A program made the translations under genes and the position numbers. The notes beneath the pieces were generated by a model. It did not search any database and was not told where the DNA came from. It saw only the letters and a list, made by a program, of their open reading frames with translations. This document shows positions 5,125-59,179 of a DNA stretch of 64,000 bases, piece by piece; positions within the stretch are counted from its first letter, which is position 1; each line of letters starts with the position of its first letter. The stretch comes from a bacterium (GTDB taxonomy: Bacteria; Bacillota; Clostridia; Christensenellales; Aristaeellaceae). The stretch spans positions 34-64,033 of the forward strand of contig CAVINP010000001.1 of assembly GCA_963643985.1 (NCBI GenBank), read 5' to 3'.

Positions 5125-6183
5125 ATGAAGAAAGTCTCTAAGGTACTGGTACTGGTACTGGCTTTGACGCTGGTCGTCGGCATGTTCACGAATGCCTTTG
5201 CGTGGGAAAAGCGCAAGGACAGCAAGGATCAGCTCGTGGTTGGTGTCTCCTGGAAGACCTTCCAGGAAGAGCGCTGGGTTCGTGAGCTGAACGTCATGAA
5301 GGACATCTGCGAAGAGCAGGGCATCGAGTTCATCTATCAGGTATCCGAAAACGACGCCATGAAGCAGGTTTCCCAGGTTGAGAACATGGTTGCTCAGGGC
5401 ATCGATATTCTGATTGCTCAGACCAACGAGAAGGAAGCACTGGCCAACGCTTTCCGCTCCGCTTCCGAAGCAGGCGTGCTGGTGGCCTACTATGAGTCCA
5501 CTCAGGGCGAAACCTACGCAGACTTCGCCGGCGGCAACGACGAGTATTCCATCGGCATGCAGATCACCCAGGCGATCGGCGACATGGGCCTCGAAGGCAA
5601 GGTTGCTTACATGTACGGCGATCCCGCAGGCGGATCCGGCGTCTACAAGTTCCATGACGGCATGCATGACGGCATGGCCGGCAGCCCCAACGTTGAGGTT
5701 ATCGGCGAGCAGTGGGCAACCAACTGGGATCCCCAGATTGCACTGTCCAACAGCGAAAACTGGCTGGCTCAGTACGGCGATGAAATCGTTGCCATCCTGT
5801 GCATGAACGATGGTCTGGCCGGCGGCGCCATCCAGGCTCTGGAGAACGCGGACCTTGCGGGCAAGGTTCTGGTTTGCGGTCAGGACTGCGACCTCGTTGC
5901 CGTGCAGCGCATCGTGGCAGGCACCCAGTACTCCACCGTTCTCAAGAGCGGCAACGAGTATCCGACCCTCTTCATCAACGCCGTGCTGGACTACTACATG
6001 GGCGTGACTACCGCTGCAGACTACGAGAACAGCGAAGAAAACTGCGACGGCGCGACCATCCCCTTCCTGAAGTATGACGGCATCGTCATCACCAAGGACA
6101 ACGTGGACGCTGTCATCGAAGCCGGTGTCTACACCTACGAAGAAGTTTACGGCGAGGCCGAAGCGACTGAAGAGGCTGAATAA
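5125..6183 (+). CDS. Sugar ABC transporter substrate-binding protein, XylF/RbsB-like (periplasmic binding protein family)
   Basis: AGGAGG RBS at 5110-5115. The pattern ...GQDCDLVAVQRIVAGTQYSTVLK... recalls XylF GQDADL..I..GTQ..TV.K. The hydrophobic N-terminus has no lipobox Cys. Confidence 0.85.
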   Translation: MKKVSKVLVLVLALTLVVGMFTNAFAWEKRKDSKDQLVVGVSWKTFQEERWVRELNVMKDICEEQGIEFIYQVSENDAMKQVSQVENMVAQGIDILIAQTNEKEALANAFRSASEAGVLVAYYESTQGETYADFAGGNDEYSIGMQITQAIGDMGLEGKVAYMYGDPAGGSGVYKFHDGMHDGMAGSPNVEVIGEQWATNWDPQIALSNSENWLAQYGDEIVAILCMNDGLAGGAIQALENADLAGKVLVCGQDCDLVAVQRIVAGTQYSTVLKSGNEYPTLFINAVLDYYMGVTTAADYENSEENCDGATIPFLKYDGIVITKDNVDAVIEAGVYTYEEVYGEAEATEEAE

Positions 6184-6215
6184 TCAAAACACTCCGAACA
6201 ATCGGAAAACATTCG

Positions 6216-6246
6216 ATCCTCCGGGCGGTTGCCCGGAGGATTTCCT
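6216..6246 (+). terminator. Strong intercistronic stem-loop after the binding-protein gene (partial terminator or mRNA stabiliser)
   Basis: ATCCTCCGGGC-GGTT-GCCCGGAGGAT is a perfect 11-bp stem, followed by TTCCT. Confidence 0.6.
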
Positions 6247-6282
6247 AAGAGAGGCAAAACAAAGCGACGGGGGTATGAAGAC

Positions 6283-7140
6283 ATGTTTCAGAATTTGAAG
6301 AAAGAACAGTTCATCCATTCCAATTTTCCCTTCGCCAGGTATTCTCTGGACTATACGCTGGATTCCCTCGAGCGCATGGGCGCAGGCCCGATCGAGTTCT
6401 ACGGTGCGAATCCTCACTTCTGCATGGAAGATGTCACGTACAGAGATATGAAGGCGCTGAAGAAGAAGCTGGACAATCACGGCCTGAGCGTGGTCGAAAT
6501 CAATCCTGAAAACTGCGCCTATCCTGTCAATCTTGCTTCTCTGAATCCGGCAACACGGATGAGAACCTTCCGCTATTATGAGAACGCGATTCGCACGGCA
6601 GGCGTTCTGGAAACGCCTTACGTGCTGGTATTCCCGGGCTACGCCGATCTCAACGGCGATGAGGACCTGGCATGGAAACTGTCGGTAGACTCCATGACCA
6701 GACTGGCCGATATCGCAGCCGCCGAGGGCGTGACCATTACCTTTGAATCTACGACCCGTGATCTGACGGTGATCACCGATCACAAAAAGGTCATGCAGCT
6801 GATTCGGGACTGCGGCAGGAGCAACATGGCAGTGACCATTGACCTGATGTGCCTGTCCCAGACCCATGAAACGGTTCAGGACGTATACGATACCTGCGGT
6901 TTCGGCAGGATCGTGAATGTTCACTATACGGACGGCGCATTGCTTCCCTCCGGTTCCTGGGAGCACAGAATACCCGGCGAGGGCGAGATCGATCTGGATC
7001 CGCTGCTGGCGATGTTCGATGACAATCAGTACCAGGGCTACTTCGGCAACGAAGTCAAGGGCAGCATTGATCCCGCACTCGATACACCCGAAAAGGTGAG
7101 CGCAAAGTTGCAAAAATGGTGGGATGACCACTTTGAATAA
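6283..7140 (+). CDS. Sugar phosphate isomerase/epimerase, xylose-isomerase-like TIM barrel family
   Basis: 286-aa ORF from MFQNLKKEQ. Length and pattern fit the AP_endonuc_2 / TIM-barrel isomerase family. It sits inside the ABC operon. Confidence 0.7.
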   Translation: MFQNLKKEQFIHSNFPFARYSLDYTLDSLERMGAGPIEFYGANPHFCMEDVTYRDMKALKKKLDNHGLSVVEINPENCAYPVNLASLNPATRMRTFRYYENAIRTAGVLETPYVLVFPGYADLNGDEDLAWKLSVDSMTRLADIAAAEGVTITFESTTRDLTVITDHKKVMQLIRDCGRSNMAVTIDLMCLSQTHETVQDVYDTCGFGRIVNVHYTDGALLPSGSWEHRIPGEGEIDLDPLLAMFDDNQYQGYFGNEVKGSIDPALDTPEKVSAKLQKWWDDHFE

Positions 7141-7181
7141 AATAAATAAAGGAATTGACGGGGAAAGGGGGAGTCACACAA

Positions 7182-8705
7182 ATGGAAAATTATATTCTTG
7201 AGATGAAGAACATCACCAAGGAATTTCCGGGCGTCAAGGCGTTGGACAACGTCACCTTCGGCGTTCGCCCCGGCGAGATCCACGCACTCTGCGGTGAAAA
7301 CGGCGCCGGCAAGTCCACGCTGATGAAAGTGCTCAGCGGCGAGCATACCGACTACAAGGGCGAGATGATTCTCGAAGGCAAGAAGGTCTTCTTCAAGGGC
7401 ATCAAGGAGAGCGAGGCCGCCGGCATCGCCATCATCCATCAGGAACTGGGCCTGATTCAGTCGTTGAACGTCTGCGAAAACATATTCCTGGGTGATGAAA
7501 TCTGCCAGAACGGTGTCATCAACTGGGATTTGGAATATCAGAGGTCCCGCGAGCTCCTTGCAGACCTGAAGCTGAACATCAGCCCGACCACCCGCCTGGG
7601 CAACCTGGGCATCGGCCAGCAGCAGCTGGTTGAGATCGCCAAGGCGCTCAAGAAGAACTGCAAGATACTGATCCTGGACGAGCCGACGGCGGCTCTGCCC
7701 GAGGATGACTCGGCCAACCTGCTCAAGCTGATGCGCGAACTGCGCGACAAGGGCATGAGTATCGTGTTCATCTCGCATAAGCTCAACGAGGTGCTGAGCA
7801 TTGCGGACACAATCACGATTCTGCGCGATGGCCAGACGGTGGATTCCAGGCCTGCGGCAGACTACACGGAGGATACGCTCATTTCCGGCATGGTCGGCCG
7901 TGAGCTGACCACCCGTTTTGCACCCCGCAACTGCGAGATCGGCGATGTGATGCTTCGCGTATCGGATTGGTCGCTCTTTGACGGCGTCAACAACAAGTGG
8001 GTTGTTCAGGATGTGAACCTTGAGGTTCGTGCGGGCGAGGTCGTCGGCATTGCCGGCATGATCGGCGCAGGACGCACGGAGCTGGCCATGAGCATCTTCG
8101 GTGCAATGGAGGGTGCCATCAGCGGCAAATTCGAGTATCTGGGCAAGGAGCGCAAGCGCTTCAGGAACACCGCCGAATCGATCGAGAACGGCCTGTTCTA
8201 CTCCACGGAAGACCGCAAGCGCTACGGCCTGATCCTCTCTTCCGACATTGCATACAATTCGTCCCTGTCCAGCCTGCACAGATTCCTCCAGCACGGTTTC
8301 TTCGTCAACCGTGACCGTGAGTACGAGCAGGTCAAAGAGATGGTCAAGACGCTGCGCGTCAAGACCCCGTCCATACTGCAGCGCGTCGGCAACCTCTCCG
8401 GCGGCAACCAGCAGAAAGTCTGCCTGGCCAAGGCACTGATGACGCAGCCCAAGGTACTCATACTCGATGAGGCCACCCGCGGCATCGATATCGGTGCAAA
8501 GACCGAAATCTATCAGCTGGTCAATCAGATCACCGAACAGGGCGTGGCGGTCATACTGATCTCTTCGGAAATGCCGGAGGTGCTGGGTCTGAGCGACCGC
8601 ATCTACGTCATGCGCGAGGGCAGGATTGCAGCCGAGTTTGACAACCGCAACAGAAGCATTACACAGGAACAGATCGCTCTCGCAGCGACAGGAGGTGTCG
8701 AATAA
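7182..8705 (+). CDS. Sugar ABC transporter ATP-binding protein with tandem ATPase domains (XylG/RbsA-like)
   Basis: Walker A GENGAGKST and GMIGAGRTE. Signature LSGGNQQKV. Walker B ILILDEPT and VLILDEAT. Confidence 0.95.
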   Translation: MENYILEMKNITKEFPGVKALDNVTFGVRPGEIHALCGENGAGKSTLMKVLSGEHTDYKGEMILEGKKVFFKGIKESEAAGIAIIHQELGLIQSLNVCENIFLGDEICQNGVINWDLEYQRSRELLADLKLNISPTTRLGNLGIGQQQLVEIAKALKKNCKILILDEPTAALPEDDSANLLKLMRELRDKGMSIVFISHKLNEVLSIADTITILRDGQTVDSRPAADYTEDTLISGMVGRELTTRFAPRNCEIGDVMLRVSDWSLFDGVNNKWVVQDVNLEVRAGEVVGIAGMIGAGRTELAMSIFGAMEGAISGKFEYLGKERKRFRNTAESIENGLFYSTEDRKRYGLILSSDIAYNSSLSSLHRFLQHGFFVNRDREYEQVKEMVKTLRVKTPSILQRVGNLSGGNQQKVCLAKALMTQPKVLILDEATRGIDIGAKTEIYQLVNQITEQGVAVILISSEMPEVLGLSDRIYVMREGRIAAEFDNRNRSITQEQIALAATGGVE

Positions 8706-21225: not shown

Positions 21226-21260
21226 GAGGCTGCTGCAAAACTTGCAGCAGCCTCTGCTTT
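21226..21260. terminator. Bidirectional terminator between convergent genes
   Basis: GAGGCTGCTGCA-AAACT-TGCAGCAGCCTC is a perfect 12-bp stem, followed by TGCTTT. Confidence 0.75.
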
Positions 21261-21273
21261 GCCGGTCGCACCT

Positions 21274-21909
21274 CTATCTGATCGTCTTTTGCACAAACAT
21301 ATTTCCTTCGACCAGTATGTCCGAGAAGTTGCCGATGCCGCCGTAGCTGTACACCAGTGCGCTGCCGTCATCCTTTGCCACGATCACGCGTATGCCCGCC
21401 ATGGTGTGGCCGTTGGGGGAGGTCAGCAGGCCTTTGGCGCAGAGACCGTCGATTTGGGCAGTGGCCGACCAGACGGTAATTGTCTTCCCTGCCAGATCGG
21501 TTTCGTACTGTGCCTTCGCTTCGGCATAGCTCTGCATGCTTATTTGCAGAAAGCGGTTTGCGCTCTCCGCGGCAAAGCAGCTGCCGTTGTCCTGCACAAT
21601 GTGGTTCTTGCCGAGTAGATCCTCCCGATCGATGCTGTAGACGCGACCCAGGGCGGCCTTTACGCGGCTGATTCCGTATTCGCCGCCGCGGCCGTCCAGC
21701 AGGGCGCTGTCGTCCAGCGCATCATCTATGACGGTCAGATTCGTGCCGTCCCAGTACAGGCTTTTGCGGTCGTTTGGCACGTCCGCTTCCATCATTTCGA
21801 TATATTTTGCACTATCCATGCTCTGTGTTCCTCCGTTTTCCTCGGCTATACCCGTTATCGGGAGCAGTGCCGCGATTATTGCGGCGATCAGCCTGCACTT
21901 CATATTCAT
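21274..21909 (-). CDS. Secreted hypothetical protein; candidate partner or immunity protein of the upstream toxin
   Basis: The ATG at 21909 overlaps the toxin stop (ATGA). Signal-peptide-like MNMKCRLIAAIIAALLPITGIAEE. I recognise no family. Confidence 0.6.
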   Translation of the reverse strand: MNMKCRLIAAIIAALLPITGIAEENGGTQSMDSAKYIEMMEADVPNDRKSLYWDGTNLTVIDDALDDSALLDGRGGEYGISRVKAALGRVYSIDREDLLGKNHIVQDNGSCFAAESANRFLQISMQSYAEAKAQYETDLAGKTITVWSATAQIDGLCAKGLLTSPNGHTMAGIRVIVAKDDGSALVYSYGGIGNFSDILVEGNMFVQKTIR

Positions 21910-22946
21910 ATCGGCCACCAGCTTCTGTTTGCCTTGCGGACGATATTCTTGAATTCCTTGTAGGCGTTGGGGAAGACCTCCCTGAGGTAGCTGAGCTTTG
22001 TAGCATCTGTTGACATGCTCGCCTCAAAGAAGTGCGCAAAGGCCTCGTTGTTTATCTTGTCGGGTATGCCGTGCTCCGTTGCCCCCTGCCAGTAGGATGT
22101 ATTGTGCAGCCAGTAGCCGACGCATTCGTTTTGTGTCAGGCCGCCGACAAGGTCGGAGACTCCGTTTTTGTTGTTGCCGTCGGTACAGAGCCAGTCCTCG
22201 ATAATGTCATAGGCTTCGTCTCGGCTGCAGCTGTTTTGCTTCATGACGTTGTTCACATAGTTTTCAAAGTCGTTTTTGAGGGCCGTGGAAAAGGACTTGG
22301 AAGAGGACGAATCGCCGGGCCAATGGGTGTAGTCGTCGACCATGTGTCCGACCTCGTGAAAATAGGTGGAGCATTCGCCGCGTTTATTTTTCAGATCGTC
22401 CTGCCAATTGTAGTAGATGCGGTTTAGCAGCGGATTATAATAGGCACCACCCGCCTGGGTATCGCTGCCGATGTGAATCTTCTTTTTGAATCTGTCGTAA
22501 AGCCTGGCCACTTCCCGGTCGATCGCATTGTTGCGGCGGTTCTGCACGCGAAGATCGTAGTCCGCCTTCGTCAGGCCGAAGGTAAAGCTTGACGAGATAA
22601 CGGTCGAATTTTCGACGCTCAGGTTCGCCGCAGACATTGCGATATCCGTATTTTCGCCCGTACTTTCTGCCGAGAAGCGCCCGATCATAGCCGTCTCCGC
22701 CGCTTCAAAGGTCGCCTTCGCCTTTCCGATGGCAGCAGACATGTCCCGGGCTTTCTGCGCAACGGCATTTGCATTCTTTTTCCCGGCAAGTATCTTATCC
22801 GCAGCACCGGTCTTGGTCCACCACGCTTCACTCGTATCCACGCGGGCGAGCAGGGCTGCGACATCCTCAAGTACACCTTCGAGCTTTTCACACTGCGCCG
22901 CGGCAGCGGTCAGCGCCTCAGAGCTGTATCTGATATGATCGTTCAT
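21906..22946 (-). CDS. Putative polymorphic toxin: LXG-like helical N-terminus plus HExxH zincin (anthrax-LF/M34-like) C-terminal domain
   Basis: L22-E23-G24 lies in the first helix. HEVGH is encoded at 22344-22358, within YFHEVGHMVDDY. A downstream NNEAFAHFFE supplies a candidate third ligand Glu. GGGGGTG RBS. Confidence 0.65.
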   Translation of the reverse strand: MNDHIRYSSEALTAAAAQCEKLEGVLEDVAALLARVDTSEAWWTKTGAADKILAGKKNANAVAQKARDMSAAIGKAKATFEAAETAMIGRFSAESTGENTDIAMSAANLSVENSTVISSSFTFGLTKADYDLRVQNRRNNAIDREVARLYDRFKKKIHIGSDTQAGGAYYNPLLNRIYYNWQDDLKNKRGECSTYFHEVGHMVDDYTHWPGDSSSSKSFSTALKNDFENYVNNVMKQNSCSRDEAYDIIEDWLCTDGNNKNGVSDLVGGLTQNECVGYWLHNTSYWQGATEHGIPDKINNEAFAHFFEASMSTDATKLSYLREVFPNAYKEFKNIVRKANRSWWPI

Positions 22947-22958
22947 GATGCACCCCCG

Positions 22959-23264
22959 CTATCCGCCGAAGCTGCGGGCCAGCTCGGCATCCCGCTTTTC
23001 AAGTTCTTCCGCAGAGCGTATCAGCGCGTTGCAGGTCTTTGTCAATTGACTGTGAAGCTTCCTGACATCGCCCCTCAGCGACAGAAGCGAGGCATCCAGC
23101 GCGTCTGCGGCAGCGCCTGCAAATTCGCCGTCCAGCACCTCACGCGCCTTGTCCGCGCCCGGCAGCGCCGCCCGGGCCAGCAGGTCGCAGCACTGTCTGA
23201 TCTTCTCAGCCTCCCTGCGGATCTGCGCCGAATCGTATTCGTATGCTTCGCCCACGTGCCTCAC
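22959..23264 (-). CDS. Small helical protein of WXG100/Lap-helper size, first gene of the toxin cassette
   Basis: About 98-101 aa, Ala/Glu/Arg-rich and predicted helical. GTG starts at 23264 or 23255; GAGGTG RBS. No clear WxG motif. Confidence 0.55.
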   Translation of the reverse strand: MRHVGEAYEYDSAQIRREAEKIRQCCDLLARAALPGADKAREVLDGEFAGAAADALDASLLSLRGDVRKLHSQLTKTCNALIRSAEELEKRDAELARSFGG

Positions 23265-23295
23265 CTCTTGTGTTATGTTTGTGATTCTTATTTAT

Positions 23296-23324
23296 ATTAT
23301 ATGGCATAATGCGGGCTGCGTCAA
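23296..23324 (-). promoter_or_regulatory. Sigma-70/SigA-type promoter of the toxin cassette
   Basis: Minus strand reads TTGACG (23324-23319), a 17-nt spacer, then TATAAT (23301-23296). Confidence 0.7.
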
Positions 23325-27477: not shown

Positions 27478-29121
27478 TCAGACCTGGCTGTCGGCGGCGA
27501 GCGGATCGGTGTTGCTCGTGTCCGCAACCTCGGCCGGCTGTATGGCCTGCTCGGTCGGCGCAGGCGTGTCCGTCGGTGCTGCGGAGGGCGTCGGCGTGGT
27601 CGCGCCGGGCGCGTAGGGCGCATCGTCGGAGTAGAGCAGCGTCTGCGTGTCGTTGTCGGCAATACCGGTCGCGCTGATGCCCGCCGTCTCCTGGAAGAGC
27701 TTGACTGCCGTGGACGTCTTGCTGCCGAAAGAGCCGTCGGCCGCATCGCTGAGATAGCCCAGATCCTTGAGACGCTGCTGCAGCTTCATGACGTCGTTGC
27801 TCTCGTCGCCCTTCTGCAGAGAGCGGTATACCACCGGTTCCGCAGTGGCCGCGGGCGCAGCCGTCTCGCTGGCCACGGTGATGACCTGACCGTTGATGAT
27901 GCCGGTCAGCTCCGCCGCAGAGGTGATGCCTTCCAGCTGCGTGATGGCATTGGTGACGATCTGCCACCTGGCCCGGGAATCGGCCTGCTTGGTGTCGCTC
28001 GTGCTGTCCACGGCCATGGCATCCATCAGTATGGCGTTGCCGATGTTGTCCTGTATGGCCTGCAGCGCGGAGACGAAGGTTTCGTCGTTGGTCGCAGGCT
28101 CATCGGGCAGCAGTGCCGCGATCGCCTGGGAGTCGGCCGTGAGCGCATTGGAGAGCGCCAGCATGCCGTCCGAGGTGTACAGGGCGGTGTAGCTGTCGAT
28201 ATAGTCCTGCTGCGTGTGCGCCTTGATCATCTCAATACCCTGCGTGTACAGGCTCTCGCTCACGCCCTCGATGGGCGAGCTGCTGCTCCTGCTGCCCACA
28301 AACTTGAGACCCAATACGATGCCCACGATGAGCACCGCGGCAACGGCCACGATGATGGCGGGCTTGATGAAACGGCGCAGATCGATGCGGCCGCGGCGCG
28401 ATGCACGCGCATCGGAGTAATCATCGTCGCCGTAATCGTCGGGATAGTCATCGGCGTAATCATCCCGGTAGTCGTCGTCGGCATAGTCCTCTTCGGTGTA
28501 TTCCGGCTCGGCATAGGGCGCACGCTCTTCTTCCTCGGCCTCATAGGCGGCACGCCTGCGCGAGGCGCGGCGGCTCGAGCCGTCCTCCAGCTTGCGGATG
28601 TATTCGCTGACGTCGCGGGAGATGCCTGCGCGGCCCGAAGATTTGATCTCGCGCGGCCTGAACTCGCTCATATCGACCTTCTCATCGGGACGCAGATCCT
28701 CGTCCAGCTCGTCGAGCGCCTCGCGCGCCGTATCCGAGAGCGGCATGCCGTTCAGATCCGCCGGCTCCTCTTCCTGCTGCTCCTCCTCTTCTTCCTGCGT
28801 CTCGGGGGCCATGGCGGCCCGCATGTCGCGGCGCACATTCTCGGGCGCGGAGGCCCCTTCGTACACGGGGCGGTAGGTGGTGCGGCTGCCCACGTCGCTG
28901 TCTTCCTCGGCAATATCTCCGTTGCCGGTGTAGGTGGTGCGCGTATAATTTTTGACCGGGCCGTTGCTCAGTTTGCCGGCCTCGGCCTGACCGGGGTCAA
29001 CGCTGAACTGCACGGATGTATAGGGGAGTCCGCCAAAGCGGCTGTCACCGATGGCCGCACCGCAGCCCGGACAGACCTGATCCGTCTCCCGGATGGTTTT
29101 TCCGCATTTCGAGCAAAACAT
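27478..29121 (-). CDS. Membrane protein with N-terminal zinc ribbon, acidic linker, TM helix and C-terminal peptidoglycan-binding (PG_binding_1-like) domain
   Basis: MFCSKCGKTI...CPGCG zinc ribbon. Asp/Glu/Tyr-rich region. TM helix PAIIVAVAAVLIVGIVLGL. C-terminal ...VMKLQQRLKDLGYLSDAADGSFGSKTSTAVKLFQ... Confidence 0.75.
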   Translation of the reverse strand: MFCSKCGKTIRETDQVCPGCGAAIGDSRFGGLPYTSVQFSVDPGQAEAGKLSNGPVKNYTRTTYTGNGDIAEEDSDVGSRTTYRPVYEGASAPENVRRDMRAAMAPETQEEEEEQQEEEPADLNGMPLSDTAREALDELDEDLRPDEKVDMSEFRPREIKSSGRAGISRDVSEYIRKLEDGSSRRASRRRAAYEAEEEERAPYAEPEYTEEDYADDDYRDDYADDYPDDYGDDDYSDARASRRGRIDLRRFIKPAIIVAVAAVLIVGIVLGLKFVGSRSSSSPIEGVSESLYTQGIEMIKAHTQQDYIDSYTALYTSDGMLALSNALTADSQAIAALLPDEPATNDETFVSALQAIQDNIGNAILMDAMAVDSTSDTKQADSRARWQIVTNAITQLEGITSAAELTGIINGQVITVASETAAPAATAEPVVYRSLQKGDESNDVMKLQQRLKDLGYLSDAADGSFGSKTSTAVKLFQETAGISATGIADNDTQTLLYSDDAPYAPGATTPTPSAAPTDTPAPTEQAIQPAEVADTSNTDPLAADSQV

Positions 29122-56297: not shown

Positions 56298-56350
56298 AAA
56301 AACAGAAGTATCAATATGCATATGTGATTTCAGGCGGAAGGGCTGCGAAC

Positions 56351-59179
56351 ATGAAAAAATATATGAGCTTTATTATGGTGCTGGCGCTGTTGCTCGGCAG
56401 CGCACCCGCATCCTTGGCCGAGGAGACCGCCGAACCCGAACCGATTGAAGCGGCCGTCATCGAGGAAACGGCAGAGTCTGAGCCAAGCGGGGAGACCGTC
56501 ATCGAAGAGACGGCCGAACCCGAACCGACCGAAGAGACCACCTCCGAGGAAACAGTCGGGTCTGCAACCGAAGAGGATGAAATCGCAATATTGGATGAAA
56601 TGCCGGAAACAGCCGACACCGGCGATGACGATATGGGCCTGGATCACCCGGAAGGCGGCGACCCGCAGGAGGATGGCGACGGCCTCAACTTCAATGCTTC
56701 CACCGGCACCATCACCGGGCACGCGGATGACTGCAGCGGCGCACTCGACATTCCGGATACGATCGACGGCGTGGCCGTCATCAAAATCGGCAGCAGCGCC
56801 TTCGCGGACTGCACATCCCTGACTTCCGTGACGATTCCCGAGGGCGTGACGGAGATCGGCGGCTCTGCATTTAAGGGCTGCACCGCGCTCACGCGCGTGT
56901 CTCTTCCTTCAAGTGTCACCAAAATCGGCAGTTCCGCCTTTGAGGGTTGCACATCCCTGACAAGCATCAGCCTGCCCGCAGGGCTGACGGAGATTGCGGA
57001 GGGCCTGTTCTCGGACTGCTCCGCGCTGGGCAGCATCGGCATTCCGGAAAGCGTCACCCGGATCGGCGCCTATGCCTTCAACGGCTGCGCAAAGCTCTCG
57101 TCGATCGACCTGCCCGAGGGACTCACGTCCGTCGGCAAGTTTGCCTTCTTCAAGTGCGGCAAGCTGACGAACGTCTCCGTCCCACAGGGTGTAAGCACGA
57201 TCACGGACAGCGTCTTTTCCGATTGCACCGCCCTTGCGAAGATCACTTTGCCGGACGGCCTGACCAAAATCGAATGGAACGCCTTTAACGGTTGCAGTAG
57301 CCTTACGAGCATCACCGTTCCGGACGGCGTGAAGGAAATTCTCCAGGGCACTTTCAGGGACTGCACGAGCCTTTCAAGCATCTCTCTGCCGGAGGGGCTG
57401 ACCCAAATCTGCACCCGGGCCTTTATCGGCTGCAGCGCACTGACGCGGCTGGACATTCCGTCCACATTGCAATCTCTGAGCAGCTACAGTTTTTCATCCG
57501 GCACCGCACTGCATTGCACATTGGGCACGACGGGCGCAAAGACGCTGGGCAAGCGCGGCTACGGCTTTTGGGACGGCGGCAACGAATACAGATATGTCTT
57601 TGAAAACGGGAAGGAAAGCGGACTGATACTGCTCTCCTGCGACAAGGATGCGCAAAGCATAACCGTCCCGAGCGAGGTAACGGATATCGATGGGGCGGCC
57701 TTTGACGGCTGCACGAAACTTTGCGAGATCAGCATTTCGGGCAATGATACCCGGTTTGAATCTCTGCCCGAGGGCGCGACAATCCTGTGCGCATACGGTT
57801 CGGATGTTGCCGAACACTGCCTTGAAATCGGCCGGGCGATCGGGTATTTCGACTACGCACCGGTAACGGGCATCTCTTTGAACTTTGCAAGGCTCGATCT
57901 GGGAAAGGGGCAGACCGTCGGCACGCTCAGGGCCACGGTCGAGCCCGAGAACGCCACCGACCGGACGGTTATCTGGACGAGCAGCAACGAGAGTGTGGCC
58001 ATGGTCAACGCCGAGGGCGAAATCACCTGTGTGGCCACGAAGGGCACTGCCGTCATCACTGCCACGGCGGGCGGGTATGCGGCAAGCTGCACCGTCACCG
58101 CACGCAGAAAAGGCGTGACGGGCATTGCCCTGCCTGCCGAAAAGACGGTGGTGCGCGGCAAGACGGCAACGCTCAAGGCCACGCTTTCCGGCAGACCCAC
58201 GATATCGACCGTCACCTGGACAAGCAGCGACCCCGAAGTGGCGACGGTTTCAAAGAAGGGCGTCGTGACGGGCGTATCCGTCGGCGCGGCCGTCATCACC
58301 GCCACGGCCTCAAGCGGCCATCAGACCCGGTGCACGGTGACGGTTGAAAATCAGAAGGTCACAAGGCTCAGACTCAGCTCAACGAGATTGACGATGTATC
58401 ACCACGGCGTATCGCGCCTGAAGGTGAGCATCAGCCCCAAAGATGCCTTCGACAAGGCCGTTCTCTGGGCAAGCAGCAATACGGACGTGGCACGGATCGA
58501 TTCCAACGGGCTGATCGCCGGCATCACGCCGGGCACGGCCACGATCACCTGTACGGCGCTGGACGGCAGCGGCCTCGTCGCCAAGTGCACGGTGACGGTC
58601 AAAAAAGTTGCCGTCAAAAAGATCGGCATAGTGAACGTTTCCGACGGCAAGACGGCCAAAAGCAGGAGCTATAACTATGAAGACAATGCGGGCAAGACCT
58701 TTGAAGTATTCAGGTCTGTCGTCACGCCCTCGAACGCCACCTACCCGGACGTGAGGTGGACAAGCAGCAGGGAAAGCGTTGTTTCCGTAGACGAAGCAAG
58801 CGGCCGGATCACGATAAACGGCATCGGAACGGCCACCGTCAGCTGCATATCCGTCGACAACAGGCATGTGAAGGCGACTTGCAGGATTACGGTGACCAAG
58901 ACGGCGGTCAAGGGGATCAGCGTCACCCGCGGCGGGGCGACGCTCAACTCCAAGACCGTGCTCAATATGAAGAAGAGCGACAGCGACGACACAATCAAGG
59001 TCTCCTTCGAGCCGTCCAACGCCAGCTATCAGGATCTGGTATGGAAGACAAGCAACAAAAGAATTGCAAAAATCGAAAACGGCGTGCTGAAAGCCGTCGG
59101 CAAGGGCACGGCGACCATCACGGTCTATGCCAAGGACAACAGCCGTGCCAAGGTCAGCTTCAAGGTAAAGGTCAGCTGA
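56351..59179 (+). CDS. Large surface protein: signal peptide, acidic repeats, BspA-type leucine-rich repeats, Big_2 Ig-like domains
   Basis: Repeats of the form IP.GVT.IG..AF..C..LTS. in about 23-aa units. At least five Big_2-like modules (...VTWTSSDPEVATVSKKGVVTGVSVGAAVITAT...). No obvious LPXTG motif or C-terminal TM helix. Confidence 0.85.
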   Translation: MKKYMSFIMVLALLLGSAPASLAEETAEPEPIEAAVIEETAESEPSGETVIEETAEPEPTEETTSEETVGSATEEDEIAILDEMPETADTGDDDMGLDHPEGGDPQEDGDGLNFNASTGTITGHADDCSGALDIPDTIDGVAVIKIGSSAFADCTSLTSVTIPEGVTEIGGSAFKGCTALTRVSLPSSVTKIGSSAFEGCTSLTSISLPAGLTEIAEGLFSDCSALGSIGIPESVTRIGAYAFNGCAKLSSIDLPEGLTSVGKFAFFKCGKLTNVSVPQGVSTITDSVFSDCTALAKITLPDGLTKIEWNAFNGCSSLTSITVPDGVKEILQGTFRDCTSLSSISLPEGLTQICTRAFIGCSALTRLDIPSTLQSLSSYSFSSGTALHCTLGTTGAKTLGKRGYGFWDGGNEYRYVFENGKESGLILLSCDKDAQSITVPSEVTDIDGAAFDGCTKLCEISISGNDTRFESLPEGATILCAYGSDVAEHCLEIGRAIGYFDYAPVTGISLNFARLDLGKGQTVGTLRATVEPENATDRTVIWTSSNESVAMVNAEGEITCVATKGTAVITATAGGYAASCTVTARRKGVTGIALPAEKTVVRGKTATLKATLSGRPTISTVTWTSSDPEVATVSKKGVVTGVSVGAAVITATASSGHQTRCTVTVENQKVTRLRLSSTRLTMYHHGVSRLKVSISPKDAFDKAVLWASSNTDVARIDSNGLIAGITPGTATITCTALDGSGLVAKCTVTVKKVAVKKIGIVNVSDGKTAKSRSYNYEDNAGKTFEVFRSVVTPSNATYPDVRWTSSRESVVSVDEASGRITINGIGTATVSCISVDNRHVKATCRITVTKTAVKGISVTRGGATLNSKTVLNMKKSDSDDTIKVSFEPSNASYQDLVWKTSNKRIAKIENGVLKAVGKGTATITVYAKDNSRAKVSFKVKVS

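Follow-up and report, generated by a model that had tools for sequence, protein, structure and literature searches.

A three-gene cassette on the minus strand

In a stretch of 64,000 nucleotides (nt) from contig CAVINP010000001.1 of an Aristaeellaceae bacterium (Clostridia), hereafter called the window, we examined a cassette of three minus-strand genes that run in one direction in the order ORF1, ORF2, ORF3. ORF1 (22959-23264) encodes 101 amino acids (aa) when read from a GTG at 23264, ORF2 (21906-22946) encodes 346 aa and ORF3 (21274-21909) encodes 211 aa. A gap of 12 nt separates ORF1 from ORF2, and ORF2 and ORF3 overlap in the tetranucleotide ATGA (21906-21909); this layout had been described in an initial annotation made from the letters alone, and the sequence bears it out. 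With a probability of about 0.75, we consider the cassette to be a type VIIb-style polymorphic toxin-immunity module, an orphan, of a gut-type Clostridia bacterium, in which ORF2 would be the toxin, ORF1 its helper and ORF3 the immunity protein.

Upstream of ORF1, also on the minus strand, lies a site of the sigma-70 promoter type (TTGACG-17-TATAAT, read from 23324 to 23296) that agrees with the consensus at 11 of 12 positions, as the annotation had noted. The scan used a loose threshold, at which about 1.3 chance sites are expected in the stretch scanned, and on this consensus match a promoter here is plausible. The cassette is bordered on one side by genes for a zinc alcohol dehydrogenase and a transporter of the major facilitator superfamily, and on the other by a gene for a RelA_SpoT small alarmone synthetase (E=1.8e-34).

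A lethal factor-like peptidase domain in ORF2

The C-terminal part of ORF2 (residues 126-346 and the stop codon; 21906-22571, minus strand) is, by its model, fold and profile matches, a zincin metallopeptidase domain of the gluzincin type resembling anthrax lethal factor (LF). It carries the zinc-binding and catalytic motif HEVGH (H197, E198, H201; 22344-22358, minus strand), invariant in the alignment of the domain, and 100 residues past it the segment NEAFAHFFE (N300-E308; 22023-22049, minus strand). Both motifs lie where the annotation had put them and are invariant, or nearly so, in homologues. E301, which is invariant, we take to be a candidate for the third zinc ligand by analogy with gluzincins. 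In an alignment of 36 homologues the whole domain is sharply conserved: H197, E198 and H201 occur in every member that has it, and D204, D226, H281 and the run E301-A-F-A-H-F-F-E are invariant or nearly invariant. The sole exception to HEVGH in the alignment of homologues is P0036, a protein whose C-terminus differs.

The AlphaFold2 (AF2) model gives the domain predicted local distance difference test (pLDDT) scores above 95. When this model of ORF2 was compared with the PDB using Foldseek, the 12 top matches were all LF (probability 0.84-1.00, about 240 aligned columns, E 0.16-0.8). A profile of the domain alone, run against PDB sequences with hmmsearch, again placed LF first (E=0.003), and hhalign aligned it to the LF segment with 94.9% probability over 68 columns that span the strands, the HExxHxxDD helix and the helix after it. 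The parallel with LF that the annotation had drawn is thus upheld by fold, by profile and by profile-profile alignment. In the search that it proposed against the Pfam family ATLF (PF07737), ORF2 fell short of the gathering score, and the best ATLF match among the 36 homologues has E=0.037; the homology to the LF core is supported by fold and profile. Shared with LF (MEROPS family M34) are the HExxHxxDD motif together with the strands before it and the helix after it (SKxF...), and, further downstream, an NEA...F..E helix. Unlike LF, to which it is 12-14% identical, ORF2 carries some 60 extra residues between HExxH and the Glu helix, and because of this insertion neither HMMER nor hhalign aligned E301 with LF E735.

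Judged by sequence profile and predicted fold, the domain is homologous to the catalytic core of LF. We do not assign it to M34, and 'LF-like' is used here for homology, not family membership. Searches of Pfam, NCBIfam and PHROGs with ORF2 gave nothing above threshold except PHROG 4728, 'head morphogenesis', which is matched because it holds MuF fusions of the same domain. A single-sequence search of the PDB with ORF2 returned spurious low-complexity matches alone.

WXG100-like features of ORF2 and ORF1

The first 95 residues of ORF2 (22662-22946, minus strand) resemble a WXG100 helical hairpin in AF2 secondary structure, alignment and profile matches. The model (pLDDT about 70) has a helix at residues 9-35, a turn with the sequence W42-W43-T-K-T-G47 and a second helix at 48-95, near the end of which lies an [FY]xxxE motif (F80...E84; E84 in at least 90% of aligned sequences) that resembles the YxxxD/E export motif of type VII substrates. 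The N-terminus of one ORF2 homologue matches the WXG100 family (PF06013) at 8.2e-11, and a profile of the head aligns end to end, weakly (E 0.004-0.01), with the solved WXG100 proteins 3o9o, 3gvm and 4iyh; its matches to solved WXG100 proteins overall have E values of 0.004-0.05 and lie amid coiled-coil noise. Residues 1-95 are therefore predicted, from the model and these matches, to be a WXG100-like type VII export domain. The initial annotation had called the cassette LXG/WXG-like and pointed out L22-E23-G24 in this head. We rejected an LXG domain: PF04740 gave no match at E<=1, the head is about 95 rather than about 200 aa long, and L22-E23-G24, which is present, falls inside helix 1 and not at the hairpin turn, and is not conserved in homologues. 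Long-headed members of the family (P0053 from locus L013) match LXG weakly (E=4e-4). The head is joined to the peptidase domain by a Ser/Thr-rich linker, predicted to be disordered (residues 96-125; 22572-22661, minus strand; pLDDT <50 at residues 103-123), whose length and sequence vary among homologues.

ORF1 probably starts three codons downstream of the GTG at 23264. The public gene call on an identical contig (L001) begins at the GTG at 23255 and gives 98 aa; this start is the more likely one because the first GTG overlaps a candidate ribosome-binding site, AAGAGGTGA, and because the public call agrees. The protein matches PF06013 at E=6.3e-5 (23.6 bits, cut-off 27.3) in an alignment that covers nearly the whole model, and TIGR03930 at E=2.1e-5 with 24.6 bits, below the cut-off of 44.85. 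Its turn has no W-x-G; instead, the alignment sets the FxG motif F48-A49-G50 against the WxG present in four paralogues from the type VII secretion cluster L088, and G50 is invariant. ORF1 is of WXG100 size (98-101 aa) and has homologues in two EssC/YukD/WXG100 clusters, L088 and L093: the L088 homologue, a WXG100-like gene that immediately precedes P0036, is 50% identical (E=2e-27), and the equivalent gene in L093 is 31% identical. On these comparisons ORF1 is a degenerate WXG100 protein. The annotation's picture of a helical protein of WXG100 size without WxG gains weak profile matches and an FxG in place of WxG, but not scores that reach the curated cut-offs. Like one partner of the WXG100 heterodimers (EsxA/EsxB), ORF1 is about 100 aa long and helical, matches PF06013 and TIGR03930 weakly and is encoded upstream of a hairpin partner; unlike them it has FxG and sub-threshold scores, and its partner hairpin is fused to a toxin, ORF2. 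An ORF1-like helper was seen in the window, L088 and L093 only, and most orphan loci with a toxin of clade A are without one.

Relatives of the cassette in type VII secretion clusters

Two relatives of the cassette lie inside gene clusters for type VII secretion systems (T7SSs). In L093, a related metagenomic contig, ORF1-like, ORF2-like and ORF3-like genes occur in the order seen in the window. The ORF2-like protein, P0008, is a full-length homologue (60% identical in the peptidase domain), and the ORF3-like protein is 38% identical and has a signal peptide. Next to this cassette are six WXG100 genes, a YukD-like gene that is 59% identical to its L088 counterpart, an EssC-like gene at 48% identity and a LytTR gene. 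The L088 cluster comprises FHA genes, a 1585-aa EssC-like ATPase, YukD, five WXG100 genes, DUF4176 and the ORF1 homologue, followed by P0036 (10001-11491 of L088), which has an ORF2-type head (58% identity over the first 45 residues) and a different C-terminus. In L017 the distance between a clade-A toxin and an EssC-like gene, one that has two FtsK domains, is about 4 kb. More distant toxins directly follow an ORF of about 1470 aa in nine of the retrieved loci, of which the one tested against Pfam, from L048, is FtsK_SpoIIIE. No Pfam matches to EsaA, EssA or EssB were recorded in the L088 and L093 clusters.

Several further features of these clusters may be recorded. A LytTR-domain gene lies between the EssC-like and YukD-like genes of both, L088 also has FHA, VWA-FHA, PP2C phosphatase and Ser/Thr kinase genes, and the DUF4176 gene follows P0036. 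The P0036 C-terminus has a Gly-rich hydrophobic stretch (GIGAVADIAVGAATVVGAVMGTGITAGLG...) resembling glycine-zipper membrane toxins such as TelE.

We regard the gene content around the L088 and L093 relatives as decisive for the link to type VII secretion. Together with the LF homology and the WXG100-like parts of ORF1 and ORF2, it supports the central proposal of the annotation, a type VII polymorphic toxin module with an LF-like zincin warhead, an upstream helper and a downstream partner. The window itself has no T7SS core gene, as the annotation had stated, and tblastn searches of it with EssC, YukD and LytTR of L088 found nothing; because of this, the window copy is, on gene content, an orphan of the type VII module.

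The same isolation would fit a decayed remnant, that is, a stranded or horizontally acquired fragment cut off from secretion and either kept as a selfish toxin-antitoxin-like pair or being lost. The cassette sits among housekeeping genes with no T7SS gene in 64 kb, and in the close relatives from L004, L008 and L002 the pairs likewise stand alone, in many cases with no ORF1-like gene. We think a remnant quite improbable: the three ORFs are intact, as is the catalytic motif, the promoter-like site is near consensus and translation appears coupled. The same locus was recovered in further assemblies and sequencing runs (exact ORF3 in L001, L090 and L091; exact ORF2 in L001), and in T7SSs and type VI secretion systems (T6SSs) it is common to find orphan effector modules far from the core cluster. 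Base composition gives no sign of a horizontally acquired, AT-rich island, which we had considered. The annotation, by eye, had judged the cassette more AT-rich than its flanks; the contrast is weak, since the GC content of 0.564 is within one standard deviation of the window mean (0.583, sd 0.024), and 21% of 2-kb windows are equal or lower. Only the C-terminal domain of ORF2 (GC 0.527) is clearly lower.

Distribution and architectures of the peptidase domain

A profile search run exhaustively over 1.84 billion cluster representatives (clusters at 50% identity) found the peptidase domain in 2,881 representatives at E≤1e-3, 312 of them at E≤1e-30. A word-indexed homologue search had under-reported the family, with 36 matches. 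The domain is always C-terminal, in carrier proteins of 150-2,005 aa, and the heads that precede it include MuF (PF04233), Phage_min_cap2 (PF06152), RTX repeats, a weak LXG match and short WXG100-like hairpins. In the viral fold library BFVD, 'minor capsid proteins' of Siphoviridae match at E=3e-7. Polymorphic toxins are defined by the swapping of heads and warheads (PMC3482391). Here the ORF2-type head recurs on P0036 with another warhead, and the ORF2-type warhead recurs on varied heads, so that by this definition the family belongs among them.

Carriers of the domain are gut and rumen commensals, and LF targets host proteins. One might thus suppose a protease and inhibitor pair with no part in competition between bacteria, in which ORF2 is directed at the host or the environment and ORF3 is a 'statin'-type inhibitor or a chaperone. 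Such a reading draws on the host-directed action of LF itself, on the commensal habit of the carriers and on the fact that no bacterial target of the protease is known. It is very doubtful in our judgement, given head and warhead swapping as in polymorphic toxins, the presence of the domain on phage head proteins, a partner that co-varies with the toxin clade, and tandem toxin arrays with a common N-terminal head.

An array of this kind was found at loci L066-L076, where an identical 329-aa toxin with the peptidase domain appears under 11 taxon names (at about 7683-8672 where the locus is complete), among them Clostridium, Coprococcus, Eisenbergiella, Negativibacillus, Butyricicoccus and 'Bacteroides' metagenome-assembled genomes (MAGs). 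The 329-aa toxin is preceded by a 311-aa protein with the same N-terminal head, and the sequences suggest a widely transferred mobile element bearing a tandem toxin array. Several loci are labelled Bacteroides MAGs (among L019, L069, L072 and L092), and in L092 a pair of close ORF2 and ORF3 homologues has, 4.5 kb away, a gene for a TonB-dependent receptor (Plug and beta-barrel; 5850-7276). The Bacteroides-type context could reflect either contamination in binning or assembly, or transfer of the module into diderm bacteria.

ORF3, a predicted immunity protein

ORF3 has no match in Pfam, NCBIfam or PHROG, and a sequence search of the PDB also found none. Its AF2 model (pLDDT 81) is an alpha/beta sandwich with residues 1-29 disordered. 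We could not assign the fold: PsbP-, Bet v 1- and Tsi3-like matches were weak, all with E>=0.04, PsbP being the best (probability 0.9, E 0.04).

At every locus examined, relatives of ORF3 (24-52% identity) turned up immediately after clade-A toxins and nowhere else, and the toxin and ORF3-family trees are congruent. In 20 sequences the family keeps 19 invariant positions, including EGRxGE and YAGxGNxxDIxxE. Because of this strict adjacency and the agreement of the trees, ORF3 is predicted to be the cognate immunity protein of ORF2. It is not the only partner of clade-A toxins: after some of them, lipoproteins of 125-157 aa from a second, unrelated family (lipobox LTGC, LCGC or VGCG) replace the ORF3-like gene (loci L009, L022, L026, L019 and L002), and L003 has the toxin of L002 without the lipoprotein gene. 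Toxins of the MuF type, and those with a 'YQQLGxxWxDKKY' head, pair with cytoplasmic proteins of 67-90 aa.

Residues 1-22 of ORF3 (21844-21909, minus strand) form a putative Sec-type signal peptide with the n/h/c layout MNMKCR / LIAAIIAALLPITGIA / EE, called by eye and with a hydrophobicity heuristic, in agreement with the annotation. The annotation had considered a secreted partner atypical for an immunity protein, a view that precedent contradicts: TipC, which protects against TelC (PMC6193138), and PA0261/Tpi1 of the Tpi family, which protect against T6SS metallopeptidases (PMC6899460), are exported. What is unusual about the ORF3 family is the mixture of signal-bearing and signal-less states within it. 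A signal peptide or lipobox is present in ORF3 and its nearest clade (P0037, L004, L008, L089, L092 and L093) and, beyond that clade, in L013/14, L016 and L023, and most family members begin at the mature domain without a signal peptide. The signal-less majority leaves the compartment of action ambiguous. Cysteine or disulfide patterns were tried as a marker of extracellular action and set aside, as Cys counts of the toxin domains fail to separate the class of partners with a signal peptide from the cytoplasmic one.

These partners bear directly on a second account, in which the toxin works in the wall zone only. The protease would act outside the membrane, on peptidoglycan peptides, lipoproteins or exposed loops of membrane proteins, and ORF3 would be a purely exported inhibitor, as in the TelC-TipC and VgrG2b-PA0261 pairs, any internal start (see below) being an unused relic. 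All six readable partners of the closest clade (from the window, L004, L008, L089, L092 and L093) have a signal peptide or lipobox, clade-A toxins have lipoproteins as a second partner family, and the exported inhibitors just cited (PMC6193138, PMC6899460) are precedents. However, the ORF3 family is mostly cytoplasmic, and the peptidase domain also occurs on phage MuF and minor-capsid proteins, thought to be injected into the cytoplasm, with small cytoplasmic partners. With the evidence from the internal start given next, we rate action in the wall zone alone as rather unlikely.

A possible second start in ORF3

Within ORF3 a GGAGG (21830-21834) is followed, after a spacer of 10 nt, by the ATG of M31 (21817-21819), forming a candidate second start (21817-21834, minus strand). 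M31 aligns with the start Met of the signal-less homologues. A strong Shine-Dalgarno sequence (SD) stands 5-12 nt before a Met at this position in 8 of 10 signal-bearing ORF3-like genes (those of the window, L004, L008, L013, L014, L089, L092 and L093); among the remaining internal ATGs that lie in frame within long ORFs at these loci, the background rate is 0-3%. From gene to gene, different peptides are encoded over the internal SD (GG, QEE, QEG, GEE, KE). In the window the SD uses GGA-GGA, where GGA makes up 8% of Gly codons. The upstream starts (M1) have an SD of their own or translational coupling. The retention of the SD and ATG across partners that share only 30-40% identity and whose peptides over the SD differ speaks against an unused relic and thus against action in the wall zone alone.

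Since signal-bearing genes keep an SD and an ATG at the ancestral start, the sequences suggest that ORF3 has two isoforms, one exported and one cytoplasmic. The fuller proposal is tentative and may well be wrong: the product from M1 would be exported through Sec (lipid-anchored in relatives) and catch the toxin in the wall zone, and the product from M31 would be cytoplasmic and may shield the producer before export or after toxin entry.

Proposed mode of action

In the toxin-immunity module that we favour, ORF1 would pair with the N-terminal WXG100-like hairpin of ORF2, and the resulting helical bundle would be recognised for export by an EssC-type ATPase encoded elsewhere. The C-terminal 220 residues of ORF2 would act as a zinc endopeptidase that intoxicates competing bacteria by cleaving a protein or peptide target. 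ORF3, as the cognate immunity protein, would block the protease through direct binding; with its Sec signal, at least part of it would be found outside the membrane, like TipC for TelC, and the internal SD and ATG at the ancestral start would yield a second, cytoplasmic isoform. Relatives that are borne by phages or have cytoplasmic partners speak for an ancestral target in the cytoplasm, and the signal-bearing partners of the ORF3 clade argue for neutralisation in the wall zone. An internal start in ORF3 could reconcile these two lines of evidence.

Several observations weigh against parts of this reading. The Foldseek E values to LF are weak (0.16 and up) despite the high probabilities, which we ascribe to the use of the whole 346-aa ORF2 model as query, and ORF2 misses the ATLF cut-off (12.1 versus 27.4 bits, E=0.16). 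ORF1 and the ORF2 N-terminus match WXG100 only below the curated thresholds, and the ORF2-head profile also picks up many unrelated coiled coils. The window is without a T7SS core gene, as noted above. Signal peptides are lacking in most relatives of ORF3 and in all class-B partners. Finally, a Glu/Gly-rich linker could account for part of the internal SD signal: when the window peptide is recoded with synonymous codons, an SD arises in 8% of trials.

Comparison with known systems

The cassette most resembles the LXG modules of type VIIb secretion systems (T7SSb; TelA, TelB and TelC with Lap proteins), with which it shares a small helical helper encoded upstream, a helical N-terminal export domain, a C-terminal warhead and a downstream immunity gene. 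As in T7SSb modules, cassettes homologous to ORF1-3 lie inside EssC/YukD/WXG100 clusters, and ORF3 is predicted to face the wall zone, as TipC does in the TelC-TipC pair (PMC6193138). It differs from LXG toxins in the hairpin of about 95 aa in place of an LXG domain of about 200 aa, in having one helper rather than two or three Lap proteins, in its zincin protease warhead and in the distance of the window copy from core genes.

Zhang et al. (2012, PMC3482391) listed toxins with an ALF-MPTase domain ('Tox-ALFMPTase') solely for delivery by PVC and type II secretion systems, with Imm-SuFu immunity; ORF2, in contrast, has a T7SS-type head, and its immunity family (ORF3) is different. An HExxH zinc protease also serves as an antibacterial warhead in the T6SS, at the C-terminus of VgrG2b and in Tpe1, and there too an envelope-located partner, PA0261 or Tpi1, with a signal peptide, lipoprotein signal or transmembrane anchor, is encoded immediately downstream (PMC6899460). 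Those toxins differ in secretion system, in having a DUF4157-type zincin with no detectable sequence relationship, and in diderm hosts with a periplasm. In temperate phages, MuF and minor-capsid toxins (PMC5576092) bear the same protease domain at the C-terminus of MuF and Phage_min_cap2 proteins, whereas ORF2 lacks a phage head domain, its locus in the window is free of phage genes, and the 67-90-aa cytoplasmic partners of the phage versions belong to another family. A metallopeptidase domain has been reported in 20% of MuF toxins (Jamet et al. 2017, PMC5576092); an attempt to name it from the supplements of that paper gave no text matches. The MPTase domains of polyvalent proteins (PMC5512222) are counted with these phage toxins among the nearest known systems. 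No zincin toxin of a T7SS is described in the literature that we searched.

Other features of the window

Between the convergent ORF3 and alcohol dehydrogenase genes lies a perfect, GC-rich inverted repeat of 13 bp (GAGGCTGCTGCAA / TTGCAGCAGCCTC, loop of 3; 21226-21254). It is possibly a shared terminator of the two genes; the terminator scan did not call it, as no T run follows the hairpin. Elsewhere the window encodes a protein joining a zinc ribbon with a PG_binding_1 domain (27478-29121, minus strand) and a 951-aa surface protein of BspA-type LRR and Big_2 repeats (56324-59179, plus strand). LRR_5 proteins like the latter also occur near the toxin in L004, L015 and L092.

Implications

Among the activities known from characterised T7SSb toxins (those of nucleases, NADases, lipid II phosphatases, lipases and pore formers), an LF-related zinc endopeptidase would be a new one. 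The protease family numbers 2,881 clusters at 50% identity, a large group for which curated libraries hold no family annotation, and it is common to the secretion systems of gut and rumen Clostridia and to toxins borne on prophage heads. A bacterial substrate of the protease could reveal a new weak point in Gram-positive bacteria. The ORF3 family, with and without export signals and with apparent internal starts, gives a handle on the sites at which T7SS toxins act and on those at which they have to be neutralised. If ORF3 does have two isoforms, a T7SS-delivered, LF-like protease would need neutralising both inside and outside the membrane, and the case would illustrate how the gain of an N-terminal extension can move an immunity family to another compartment.

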